Shown: positions 10,507 through 16,482 of the stretch, in pieces
Layout: each line of letters begins with the position of its first letter
Numbering within the stretch: position 1 is the stretch's first letter
NCBI GenBank assembly: GCA_964016885.1
Contig: OZ024754.1
Span: 23,560,001 to 23,624,000, forward strand
From: Eledone cirrhosa
Lineage: Eukaryota
Length of the DNA stretch: 64,000 nucleotides
Reading direction: 5' to 3'
Program-made: the position numbers and the translations under genes
The notes under the pieces: generated by a model
Seen by the model: the letters and a program-made list of their open reading frames with translations, nothing else
Database searches by the model: none
Told to the model about the DNA's origin: nothing

Positions 10507-10675
10507 ATAGGAACGAGTAGGACCCCGACGGCTGAGCTCAAGCCGTTTCGACGAAACGGCTTGAGCTCAGCCGTCGGGGTCCTACTCGTTCATATTACCC
10601 ACTCTACTACCCTAAGTATTGAGTACTTTGGTGCGTTATGGTCCACCTGGTTCCTTACCACATTTCCTTCGTTAT
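10507..10675 (+). mobile_element. Palindromic PLE-pLTR remnant, family E (half hammerhead, folded back)
   Basis: Inverted arms 10511-10550/10552-10591 contain GAAA-cggct..agccg-TC-ggggtcc. Flanked by (TA)n. Confidence 0.75.
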
Positions 10676-11102
10676 ATATATATATATATATATATATATG
10701 TATGTGTGTGTCTGTGTGTATATATATATATATATATATGTGTGTGTATATGTGTATATGTGTATATGTGTGTATATAAGTATATATATGTATATATGTG
10801 TATATGTTTATGTATGTGTATATATATATATATATGTATATATATATATATATATATATATATATATTTATCTATGTGTATATATATGTGTATGTTTGTG
10901 TTTATGTGCGTATATGTATGTGTGTGTGTATATATATATATGTATATGTATATGTATATGTATATGTATATGTGTGTGTTTGTATGTATGCGTGTATGTA
11001 TGTGTGTATATGTATGTATATGTGTATATGTATGTGTATGTATGTATATATGTGTGTGTGTATATGTATATGTATGTGTATATATGTATATATATATATA
11101 TA

Positions 11103-12775
11103 TTTAAAACCCTTCTGAATGGACTCAACACTAACTTACAATTCACAATGGATTACAGCCATGAACAACTCCCTTTCCTCGACATCCTCATCAAGAAAAC
11201 TAGCAACAAAATAGAAACAGACATATACTACAAACCCACAGACTCTAAACAATATCTTCCATTCAACTCGTGCCACTCTAGACACACCAAAATGGCAATT
11301 CCTTATAACCTAGCCAGAAGGATCTGCACAATAGTTTCAGATAAATACACATGCTACGCACGACTAGAAGAATTAAAAAACACACTTTTCAGCAGAAACT
11401 ACCCACCATCCCTAATCACCAATGGATTCCAACGTGCCCTAAAACTAGACATCCAGGAACTCAGACACCCCAAACTCACGAATGAACCGCAACAAAAAAA
11501 TTCTACCATACATCTCCACACACAACCCCCTCAACAATGAGGCATTCGACACCATCCTCCAGAACATTCCTTTACTAAAAAGAGACCCAAGAATGAACAA
11601 AATCCTCCAAACACACAACATCATAAAGAGCAAAAGACAACCCAAATCCATAAAAAACATCCTCACACAAGCCAAAATCCAACAAACCCTCACAATGAAC
11701 CCTACAGTAACAAAATGCGGAAGGCCCAACTGTAGCATATGCATAAATCTAATAGAAGGTTCAACATTCCATTCTAAACAAGGACAGCGTTTCACAGTTA
11801 AACACAACTTTACATGTGCATCTGGAAACCTTATCTATGTTTTGACCTGCTCAGGTTGTCAAGTGCACTACATAGGACAGACAAAAAACAGCCTCCTTCA
11901 ACGTATGACCGTGCATAAATCGCAAATTAAAATACAGGAATACAGAAAGATTGCATTTAGTGAACATATCGCCAATTGTGCTCACAACCAACATCCAAAC
12001 TTTAAAATTTCCGCCATTTACAAATTCATAGACAACGCTACTTTCATCCAACGTACCAATAAGGAAACATATTTCATTAATAAATTCCAACCCCTACTTA
12101 ATGCTCTAAAAATCGGATCAATCTAAAACTGCAACAAACAATCAAACATTTACAAGAGTTACCTCCCTCACACCCTACCTAATCCTTTTTCTTAAATAAA
12201 TTAAATATCACCCAGCAAGAATTGCTTCCCCCTGCATATTAACTCTCTAAAAAGGGAAATCATATCAAACCTCAGTCCACCATTTGCCTCCATCATGGAA
12301 TCATGGATCAACTAAGCACTCTTGATATATTAACACATTTTGATCTGCTTAACTTCAATAACTATGCTTTTAAATAACATTATTTTTCTTCCACATTGAC
12401 TTTTTATGCTCTACATTATGCACGTTTGTTTTTCCTTTTTCTTTTTTCTTTTCACTTCATAAACCTTGTTTGTAAATAACATTATTTTTTTTGCACCTTC
12501 TATTTAACATGTGCGACACCACACTAATACATTTCACTATCATTTGATAATGCATAAAAATGCTGAAACCGGTAATAGACAATAATTAAATAGATAAATA
12601 GATAAATAAATGCCATTGTTAAATAATACATAAATCAACTAATACCTTAACACTTCACACAAAGTAAAACATTTCGTTTTAATCATTTTCTAACCCAGAA
12701 AAAAGAGAGAGAGAAACAAAAAAGGAAAAAAAAATATTTTTCTTCCTAATAATCGTCTCTTTCTCCCTGTTTTCA
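11103..12775 (+). mobile_element. 5'-truncated Neptune-like PLE (RT thumb, Cys linker, CCHH GIY-YIG)
   Basis: [58 protein letters not shown]. Frameshift near 11490. Inserted in (TA)n. Confidence 0.9.
12537..12578 (+). ncRNA. Hammerhead variant with U3-A8 core (TTGATAA) in the 3'UTR of the Neptune-like PLE
   Basis: ctatcat TTGATAA tgcat aaaa atgct GAAA ccgg TA atag. Palindromic helix III; helix I imperfect. Confidence 0.55.
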
Positions 12776-13018
12776 TATATATATATATATATATATATAT
12801 ATATATATATATATATATATATATATATATATATATATATATTGTTATACTTGGGGAGGGTCATATTTGTGTAATATTGCCAGAATTAATAACAGAACAC
12901 ACTCACTGTTTGGTTGGTTTTCGCTTTTCAACACACGATTTCATATCAAAAACCTCACAAAACTAATTCATCGCCGTTATATATATATATATATATATAT
13001 ATATATATATATATATAT

Positions 13019-13222
13019 ATAGGAACCAGTAAGACCCCGACAGCTGAGCTCAAGCCGTTTCGACGGCTAATTCTGGACTCATGTCCAGAATTAGCCGTCG
13101 AAACGGCTTGAGCTCAGCTGTCGGGGTCTTACTGGTTCCTATTACCCACTCTACTACCTCAAGTATTGAGTACTTTGGTGCGTTATGGTCCACCTGGTTC
13201 CTTACCACATTTCCTTCGTTAT
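13019..13222 (+). mobile_element. Palindromic family E element (60-bp perfect arms)
   Basis: Arms 13019-13078/13083-13142, loop tcat, flanked by (TA)n. Confidence 0.8.
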
Positions 13223-13669
13223 ATATATATATATATATATATATATATATATATATATGTATATATATATACACACACATACATATATATATACATATAT
13301 ACATACATATATATGTATATGTATATATGTATATATATATATGTATGTGTGTGTATATATATATACATATACATATATATATGTGTGCGTGTGTATATAT
13401 ATATATATATATGTGTGTATATATGTGTATATATATGTATACATGTATATATATATATGTATATGTATGTATATATATGTGTGTGTACATATATATGTGT
13501 ATGTATGTATTTATTATATGTATGTGTGTGTGTGTATATATATATATGTATATATGTGTGGATGTGTGTGTATATGTGTATATGTATGTGTGTATCTATA
13601 TATGTCTGTGTATGTGTGTATATATTTATATATATATGTATGTATGTATATATATATACGTGTGTATAA

Positions 13670-14035
13670 TGGTAGCGATGGTGCTTCCATAGGCAGTATG
13701 CCAAAATTAGCATTCAATATTCATACAGAACAGAGTGTAGATAGTATAAAAAACGAAAAATCAGTGATGCATCTGGACTCAATTTATTGCGTGTTACAAT
13801 TGTTTCGCCAGCAGGTAGCTCGAGACATGATCACTGTATGGACCTGGCTGATTCTACGGCTGCAGGTTCCTTCGGACACGGGCAGTTCGTTCGGAGCAAA
13901 TTTTCTCGAGTGAGAAAATACTGCAGCTGTAGAATCAGCCAGGTTCATACTGTGATCATGTCTCGAGCTACCTGCCGGCGAAACAATTGTTACACGCAAT
14001 AAACTGAGTCCAGATGCATCACTGATTTTTCGTTT
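13670..14035. mobile_element. Fold-back pLTR remnant, family F (arms ~13750-13865/13921-14035)
   Basis: The right arm carries GAAA caattg TT ..AATAAA (3' half of an HHR). Related to 41695-41806 plus 49389-49476. Confidence 0.7.
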
Positions 14036-14216: not shown

Positions 14217-14865
14217 TCCTTTCACTCGGAGAATATAAAATTCCCGAGTTCAAATCACAAACTGGCGCTATTCAAAATTGTTCCCGAGATGAGAATGAAT
14301 GATGTGGAAGCAATTCTGTCCAGTGCCGTGTGTAAAGATAGAAGCAGAGGCAGGGAGGTCAGTCTAATACCACTATAAATAGCAGCAGTCAGAACGACCA
14401 AATTTTATCTCGACCAAGAGGGTATATATATATATATATATATATATATATATATATATATATATATATATATATATATATATATATATATATATATATA
14501 TATATATATATATATATATATGTGTGTGTGTGTGTGGATGTATATATATATATATATATATATATACATGTATGTATGTGTGTGTATATATGTGTATATG
14601 TTTATATATATGTGTGTATATGTATATATATATATATATATATATATATATATATATATATATACACACATGTATGTATGTGTGTGCGTCTGTTTATATA
14701 TATGTATATATATATATATGTGTGTGTGTGTGTGTATATTACACCTGATGGGATATATATATATATATATATATATATATATATATATATATATATATAT
14801 ATATATATATATATATATATATATATATATATATATATATATATAAAAATATATGTATATATATA

Positions 14866-15961
14866 TCCCATCAGGTGTAATGACTTGGGTTTTGGTGTTG
14901 GTGTAGTACAGTGATATCAGGTCCACTATCTTCTTGGAGATTCCATAAGCCTGTAAGATCTTCATCAGGCAGTGACGGTCCACAGAATCAAAGGCTTTCC
15001 TAAAGTCAATGAAAACCATGACCGCAGGAAGGCACTTTGCTCTAGCTCCCTCTAATATCTTCCTCAGCATCCGGATGTGACTGGTGGTTGATCTTCCCTC
15101 TCTGAAGCCGTTCTGGTTGTCCCTGAGCTTCTTCTCCATCTCAGGCTGGATCCTGTTAAGAATCATCCTGTTGGGGGTCTTTGCTACAAGTGACGTCAGT
15201 GAGATCCCCCTGTAGTTGTTGGTGTTAGAGAGATCTCCCTTCTTTGGCACTGGGACGATGTTACTGATCCTCCACTGATTAGGGGCAACTCCTTTCTCCA
15301 GTGCCTGGTTACAGAATCCCAGGATGATATCATCAAAATCAGACCTCTTCATCACCTCTGATGCCACTCCATCTTCTCCATGAACCATGCCCTCCTTGAT
15401 CCTCTTCTTGGCTCTCTGAAGCTCCTTTCTGGTGAAGGGCTCTGTCGCCTGATCTCCCCAGTGCTCTGGGCTGGGGGGGCTCTCCTAGTAGGGTCCTAAA
15501 AGGGTCTAGCCATTTCTTCTTCCTATCCTCGGCCCCGTTCCCTGAATCTGACTCAAACACCTCTTCCTCCCTGTGATCTCGTTGATGATCATCCAGCTCT
15601 CCTTACATCCAAATCTGTCAACCGCTCTCTCCACACTTCTGATCTTCTCTATCAGTGCCTCCTCTCTGGCCTCAGTGTAAGCGGTACAGAGTTCTTCCCT
15701 CATCACCTCCACAGTCTCCACAAAGGAGACTGAGGTTAGCTGGACATGCTCACCGACATCCAGAGTTGACATTTCACTCAGTGCTCCTGTGGGAGCCCCT
15801 ACATAGACACACTGGAAGAGGAAGACCAAGGTTAACGTATGTTGATGCCCTAAAGACAGACACTGGTCTGTTGGAGACGCAGGATATGGCAGCGATAATG
15901 AGGAACAGAGACCGCTGGAGAGAACTCGTCCATGGATCTCGGGAATTTTACCCGCCCTAGA
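14866..15961. mobile_element. RTE-clade LINE copy with 5' inversion: minus RT segment 14866-15720, plus 3' end 15721-15961
   Basis: [40 protein letters not shown]. 3' end [22 protein letters not shown]. Confidence 0.9.
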
Positions 15962-16172
15962 TTAGAATATATATATATGTATATATATATATATATATAT
16001 ATATATATATATATATATATATATATATATATATATATATATATATATATATATATATGTATATGTATGTTTGTATATATATATATGTGTGTGTATATAT
16101 ATATATACATATGTCCAAGGCTCTAAAACCATCAACACCATAAACACACCTGGCATATCTAAGAACTGACTA

Positions 16173-16228
16173 ACTGCCTGATGAGGTCATAGCCATTCAA
16201 TAGCTATCATCGAAATATATATAGCAGT
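16173..16228 (+). ncRNA. Type-I hammerhead ribozyme
   Basis: actgc CTGATGA ..atagc/gctat.. GAAA tatata TA gcagt, followed by AATAAA. Confidence 0.82.
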
Positions 16229-16286
16229 AAATAAAGGATTATGAGTTCATGCAATTGACTTATGTATCGTCACTATATATATATAT

Positions 16287-16482
16287 ATAGGAACGAGTAG
16301 GACCCCGACGGCTAAGCTCAAGCCGTTTCGACGGCTAATTCTGTCCAGAATTAGCCGTCGAAACGGCTTGAGCTCAGCCGTCGGGGTCCTACTCGTTCCT
16401 ATTACCCACTCTACTACCCTAAGTATTGAGTACTTTGGTGCGTTATGGTCCATCTGGTTCCGTACCACATTTCCTTCGTTAT
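16287..16482 (+). mobile_element. Palindromic family E element
   Basis: Arms 16287-16343/16346-16402, flanked by (TA)n. Confidence 0.8.

Follow-up and report, generated by a model that had tools for sequence, protein, structure and literature searches.

We focus here on family E, a group of short palindromic insertions found in a 64,000-nt stretch (the window) of the 3.0-Gb genome of Eledone cirrhosa (contig OZ024754.1, positions 23,560,001 to 23,624,000). By its sequence, family E is the 3′ end of an endonuclease-bearing (EN+) Penelope-like element (PLE) of about 3.5 kb, and we consider it probable, at roughly 0.7, that its palindromes form when twin target-primed complementary DNAs (cDNAs) run off the ends of linear RNA and are then end-joined. 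The feature is real, very abundant and belongs to a known kind of element, and its junctions carry new, testable information on transposition. The literature already describes inverted copies, tails, (TA)n targets, PLE hammerheads, self-priming and circular templates. As for genomic PLE copies that start with a cap-derived G or at the cut site, no report was found in the open literature, supplements aside (PMC11167929 Fig. S2 and PMC8557442 could bear on this).

Junctions at +1 and at the predicted cut

Positions in the element are counted from the A of AGTCC as +1. Breakpoints were scored in the first 100 listed tail matches, all of which were fetched. The tail arm ends between −5 and +8 in 52 of them, between −6 and −50 in one, beyond −50 in nine and downstream of +8 in 38, so that the 5′ edge, at −4 to +2, is sharp and is followed by a downstream spread. 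An adjacent inverted arm, the only kind scored (distant arms of long copies were left out), was found by script at 70 of the 100 loci, and 66 of these pass our filter for minis, namely a short arm ending at 50-66. In 62 of the 66 minis the short arm ends at +58/TAT; the two fixed arm origins, +58 and +138, lie 80 nt apart, and this interval is the known PLE tail. The inner junctions comprise 35 overlaps, 21 inserts and 10 blunt joins, 59 of the 66 being distinct, which agrees with an earlier sequence-only reading of this DNA in which the arms arose or were homogenised per locus. The histogram of inversion breakpoints against structure that it had proposed is likewise strongly clustered and not uniform. 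The short arm carries at least 10 nt absent from the tail arm in 16 of 66 minis and the reverse holds in one (P=2.7e-4), and 44 of 50 scorable arm pairs have a diagnostic 8-mer in common, against 0.38 by chance. Solo short and solo long arms exist, and at L239 and L253/L254 (TA)n sits between the arms.

The base that precedes +1 bears on the nature of this edge. Of 4,240 young-subfamily arms reaching +1, 2,750 have the native T there, 800 a G, 599 a C and 91 an A, and 1,792 of these arms continue to −7. Where copies sit directly on (TA)n, G outnumbers C by 78 to 22 (first 100 of 163, scored by eye; P=1.6e-8). A non-native G before +1 is expected from the copying of a cap, and from the DNA junctions alone the +1 edge looks like the capped end of an RNA. 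The +1 site also resembles an initiator. A cap-derived extra G has been described in L1 inserts (PMC11702581), and in Drosophila virilis Penelope transcription starts within the pseudo-long terminal repeat (pLTR) of the element (PMC2377424). A master copy with a native G was considered as the source and rejected: native G occurs six times genome-wide, and the base before +1 in long arms is T or C in 136 of 138 and G in two.

The complete hammerhead motif reads ACCCC, TTGANAA, helix II, GAAA, helix III, TC and GGGGT, with cleavage predicted from the sequence at +41/+42. The canonical CUGANGA box does not occur, while the U3-A8 core, a free position 7 (all four bases are seen), the GAAA and the UH site do. 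Core counts are TTGAGAA 110, TTGATAA 48, TTGACAA 3, TTGAAAA 1, CTGAGAA 16 and other 8, re-fetched arms included (99 are distinct). Helix II pairs −36..−25 with +8..+18, and +1 therefore lies within loop II. Across the predicted helices 85.7% of cells are paired and 5 of 33 pairs show two-sided change in 11 related sequences, which supports the fold weakly. An Rfam scan returned no hammerhead among 150 of 156 matches listed, which were microsatellite-driven and other sub-threshold matches only. The U3-A8 variant is already known in PLEs (PMC4209133). Subfamilies with the C3/A8 core (CTGAGAA) are seen at L124, L148, L259 and L323, and a diverged sister family (L073:1595-1714, L055:1785-1903) has the same hammerhead layout with compensatory changes in helix II. 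Readings of the element, made by eye, as a hepatitis delta virus-like ribozyme or as a tRNA-derived short interspersed element (SINE) were dropped once the 5′ half of the hammerhead had been found.

A second edge falls at the predicted cut. Fourteen of the 18 solo copies that begin between +39 and +43 do so exactly at +42, and by eye none of the 18 has an extra G. Both arms end near +42 in 137 matches; the first 100 rows, in which four loci occur twice, contain by eye 42 blunt joins, 26 with a single A/T, five with a single G/C and six with a native run-on of at least 3 nt. The added base thus depends on the end, being G at +1 and A/T at +42, and we infer that +42 is the end left by hammerhead self-cleavage.

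Copies that extend into the open reading frame (ORF) show what sets the stop; 69 of 289 tail-to-ORF junctions and one array were examined, the end at L313 being left out. Among 22 copies with short ORF-side runs (66-842 nt; two are units of one insertion), 13 join the +1 edge, often after an A run, five join +42 and four join elsewhere. None of the 46 ORF-length units (at least 1,494 nt; four come from one array) starts at the +1 or +42 edge: 43 pass −30 and three stop near +48 to +90. Tail arms of the unbiased set that reach +8, on the other hand, stop at the edge in 52 of 62 cases. The stop is thus set by the template and not by the sequence, and simple end-to-end copying of the +1 RNA is excluded as the source of long copies.

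The parent element and the copies in the window

One 33-mer of family E has 25,527 exact matches in the genome and a 38-mer of the tail has 16,546, the reversed control giving zero in each case. A pattern for the 5′ half of the hammerhead has 679 matches, and long copies thus exist; this figure undercounts the young subfamily, whose core differs and escapes the pattern. A 710-codon frame at L195 encodes a reverse transcriptase (RT) together with a GIY-YIG-like region at its C terminus, and at L196 the hammerhead, the +58 and +138 sites and the ATG are collinear, with TAT after both sites. The protein (P0001, with 403 homologues) shows by eye the RT motifs DIESYY and YRDDG and a C-terminal IYQC...YIG motif; Pfam gave no match for P0001 itself, and its homologue P0093 passes RVT_1. 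P0001 also contains a Cys-rich linker, CNC...CPL...C, which is a feature of the Neptune and Nematis clades, and by its motifs the element may belong to Nematis rather than Neptune. Such a linker between RT and endonuclease is described for Neptune/Nematis (PMC8557442). Tandem units repeat with a period of 3,542-3,543 bp, and further traits of EN+ PLEs are present, namely partial tandems (the pLTR), an inverted 5′-truncated copy and a tail on one end of the insertion.

The four copies in the window are parsed as follows (coordinates in the window, strand, feature):

10507-10509: copy 1, ATA common to the arm and the (TA)n target
10510..10550, minus: copy 1, short (tail-less) arm, element +58 back to about +18
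10552..10672, plus: copy 1, tail arm, element +18 to +138
13022..13080, minus: copy 2, short arm, from +58 back to +1, with a single non-native G at −1 (13080)
13083..13219, plus: copy 2, tail arm of the youngest subfamily, +2 to +138
13100..13127, plus: copy 2, 3′ half of the hammerhead as read from the sequence (GAAA, helix III, 3′ strand of helix I)
between 13122 and 13123, plus: copy 2, predicted cut (+41/+42)
13140..13219, plus: 80-nt tail between the fixed cDNA start sites +58 and +138
16290..16343, minus: copy 3, short arm, +58 back to +5
16344..16479, plus: copy 3, tail arm, about +3 to +138
57628..57761, minus: copy 4, left arm of an older subfamily, from +138 back to about +7, with the tail
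57762..57849, plus: copy 4, right arm, +1 start, about +10 to +61 skipped, then the tail of a different subfamily

The sequence-only reading had described all four as perfect palindromes. This holds for the copies at 10507 (40-nt perfect arms around a 1-nt spacer), 13019 (60-nt arms around the spacer TCAT) and 16287 (29 nt perfect, 93% over about 57 nt). It does not hold for the copy at 57626, which consists of two tail-bearing arms of different subfamilies that are about 71% complementary, the right one lacking roughly +10 to +61. In the first three, as it had noted, the left arms share one terminus, GGTTCC/TAT adjoining (TA)n, and only the 3′ half of the hammerhead (GAAA-helix III-TC-GGGGT) is present, the 5′ half being absent. 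The palindrome axis, which it had placed in the helix-II loop, falls, at +2 to +18, inside the large loop (loop II) on the true helix II, and its proposed source, a PLE with a type I hammerhead, is borne out with a variant core. The core that it expected upstream, CTGANGA, is in fact TTGANAA; all 14 upstream CTGANGA matches are junction inserts, neighbouring elements or unrelated flank, and none is native. What it gave as 'gacggctaattct' proved to be merely the inverted arm, the actual 5′ strand of helix II being G(A/C)TCGGCTATTT. Substitutions it regarded as private to the copy at 13019 mark a subfamily, because 21 of 40 scored loci (13019 included) are 100% identical over all 142 bp; this search was biased by its query and was left out of the breakpoint analysis. 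The non-native G at 13080 may be a copied cap. At L007, L011, L022 and L055, 14-60 nt of non-TA flank are, by eye, repeated on both sides of the mini, and these repeats are likely to be long target-site duplications mixed with TA expansion.

Formation of the palindromes and competing explanations

Twin priming would proceed as follows. The element's protein may nick both strands of (TA)n and prime at the TAT following +58 and +138, on an RNA whose capped start, +1, would lie inside loop II. Two cDNAs, one per target strand, would extend to the 5′ end of this linear sense RNA and run off it, or alternatively the tail cDNA would stop early before joining, and cellular end-joining would then seal the two cDNA ends head to head. 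Circular or multimeric RNA may be the source of long and tandem copies, as may an exact jump from end to end. The insertions are better explained by a capped sense RNA as template and by two cDNAs made independently than by antisense self-priming. We put forward more tentatively, and at odds below even, that priming occurs only near the RNA 5′ end, as a target-primed strong-stop run twice by a dimer, so that linear RNAs, whether they carry a cap or have been cut without ligation, lead no further than palindromes, tens of thousands of them in the genome, and only the hammerhead-cut, circularised RNA of ~3.54 kb gives full-length and tandem copies. If this is true, the minis would document PLE hammerhead cutting in vivo for the first time and the ribozyme would be required for productive transposition.

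Several points weigh against twin run-off priming. First of all, cap and cleavage are both read from DNA junctions and not from RNA ends, and Frangieh et al. report no RNA reads ending at the cut and find cleavage dispensable in vitro (PMC11167929). Second, in inverted copies the partner arm can supply the G or C at −1 (C 599), leaving only the solo test clean, and the start at −4 shows merely four G and four C in eight matches. Third, blunt joins at +42 may arise via microhomology at the palindromic CG of +41/+42; such microhomology cannot explain the A/T class or the solo copies at +42. As for the ribozyme, the minimum-energy fold of a single sequence contains no hammerhead and 16 core matches read C3/A8 (CTGAGAA), a mismatch at a normally paired position. 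The origin of both arms from one RNA is also less secure than the arm pairs suggest, in that subfamilies may differ in their period of activity and the arms of the copy at 57626 differ. End-to-end copying of the mRNA predicts full-length copies that start at +1, none of which was found, and a second class of template has to be assumed. Finally, the sample comes from a single genome and covers the first 35 Mb of one of its chromosomes.

Among the competing explanations, the one that survives best, unlikely as we consider it, is that the +1 RNA is for the most part not the master mRNA but a short read-out of 3′ repeats or of the minis themselves, SINE-like and mobilised in trans, with run-off and joining unchanged. 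Minis vastly outnumber long copies (25,527 against 679 matches, the second pattern missing the young subfamily), no ORF-length copy begins at +1, and the D. virilis promoter is internal (PMC2377424). Such read-out is harder to reconcile with the presence of long copies in every mini subfamily examined, with chimeras that show RNA extending from +1 to 842 nt into the ORF side, and with junctions that are not inherited.

It is improbable that twin priming is true while the edge reflects stalling of RT at the loop-II structure of a longer RNA. The edge is a few bases wide and does lie in a weak apical hairpin (−16 to +5), on its 3′ strand; no compensatory change is seen in this hairpin. All 43 ORF-length units that extend this far were read through by RT at the same sequence in their 5′ repeat, whereas 52 of the 62 unbiased tail arms end there, and stalling leaves the G at +1 and the A/T at +42 unexplained.

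The mechanism of the sequence-only reading, in which nascent cDNA folds back on helix II and self-primes the second arm, now appears very improbable. Self-priming has been proposed for palindromic PLE junctions (PMC3846280), and the position of the axis within loop II, the usual membership of both arms in one subfamily (44/50), the native apical loop kept at two loci and a break inside the 5′ strand of helix II at L159 all speak for it. The minis nevertheless lack the 5′ strand that it needs. Such a fold-back requires the strand from −36 to −25 to have been copied, and just one tail arm in 100 has its end between −6 and −50. The proximal-helix junction pattern has six matches genome-wide, all ordinary joins of an older subfamily, and the apical-loop pattern has two, while both arms are at +1 in 2,981 loci. 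Folding back must begin from the tail arm, the sole holder of the tail, and the short arm therefore cannot carry extra 5′ sequence, so the 16 to one asymmetry runs in the wrong direction. The edge is furthermore present in solo and chimeric copies that have no inverted arm, and ORF-length copies pass the same structure without a stop (0/46).

An inherited hairpin moved as DNA, like a miniature inverted-repeat transposable element (MITE), is hardly credible: a very high copy number of short palindromes located in TA would suit it, but 59 of 66 junctions are distinct, the outer ends are asymmetric, the parent encodes RT, solo arms exist, and inherited symmetric terminal inverted repeats around a fixed interior are not what is found.

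Known systems, implications and other insertions

Family E resembles other EN+ PLEs (PMC8557442, PMC3846280) in its single ORF with RT and C-terminal GIY-YIG, partial tandems, head-to-head inverted copy, tail at one end, microsatellite targets and hammerhead near the 3′ end. It differs in that the tail is 80 nt here and 30-40 there, that tiny edge-bounded copies dominate, and that the junctions favour a sense template and two cDNAs where antisense self-priming had been proposed. With Anolis Poseidon PAc studied in vitro (PMC11167929) it shares the cutting and extension of both strands, a tail set by two internal start sites of RT, and an AT-rich target; the Poseidon start sites lie inside the ORF, whereas those of family E are upstream of the ATG, and genomic copies here begin exactly at the predicted cut, where no RNA ends were seen in Poseidon. 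The ribozyme agrees with PLE hammerheads (PMC4209133) in being type I with a U3-A8 core, a short helix I, G10.1-C11.1 with an unpaired base, a palindromic loop III and motif pairs on opposite strands, and differs in a helix III of 5-6 bp and a loop II of about 30 nt. The same paper, which had no in vivo evidence, proposes circular templates for PLEs; the family E copies supply evidence of an indirect kind. In L1 twin priming (PMC11702581) a second cDNA likewise comes from the other target strand, inversion junctions are end-joined and a cap G occurs; here, on the other hand, the second site is fixed, priming is near the RNA 5′ end, and both arms usually cover the same 5′ sequence, giving a palindrome. 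Finally, the process would work like, though without membership in, the strong-stop of retroviruses and long terminal repeat (LTR) elements, in which a short cDNA starts close to the 5′ end, runs off on reaching the cap and has to jump in order to continue; family E would be target-primed and not tRNA-primed, with two cDNAs and direct integration.

The origin of tandem and inverted PLE structures and the role of the hammerhead are stated as open questions in the field (PMC8557442, PMC11167929, PMC4209133). Tens of thousands of young insertions amount to a sequenced library of reaction products, in which the minis mark the predicted ribozyme cut and provide a genomic record of PLE movement, and in which long copies never stop at the +1 and +42 ends, as the circular-template proposal predicts. 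The parse can be applied to any PLE-rich genome, where such palindromes are easily mislabelled as MITEs or SINEs.

Family F (window 10200-10475), which lies beside copy 1 and served as a control, is a second PLE-like family; it has 22,159 matches and two 3′ ends, and its hammerhead (10286) has the canonical CTGAAGA. Its short copies begin within about 20 nt upstream of AA(A/G)ATGGCG, a YY1-like motif, and their starts cluster some 60-80 nt upstream of the hammerhead core and not at helix II. This suggests that a start-site edge exists in family F also, the native and target bases there being ambiguous as to cap and cut.

Two arrays belong to the parent of family E. One (G000:C1:91473162-91493813) comprises five head-to-tail 3,543-bp units of the young subfamily and an inverted arm, and is rolling-circle-like. 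The other (L325, G000:C2:356029700-356033500) contains eight tandem 299-bp units, each with a complete family E hammerhead, tail and ORF start and none with the apical loop-II hairpin, and is a retrozyme-like array derived from the family E PLE. Tandem repeats with a complete hammerhead in each, which characterize non-LTR retrozymes, are thus seen in this array and not in the minis, which are inverted and carry half a ribozyme.

Inverted-arm insertions of other families lie at 13752-14034, 16973-17510, 22584-23638, 49118-49389, 49919-53276, 53328-53711, 61390-62909 and 62156-62395 of the window, several of them adjoining (TA)n. Candidate hammerheads of further PLE families (CTGATGA...GAAA) occur at 16172, 16890, 18765 and 37945, and on the minus strand at 7823 and 62004.

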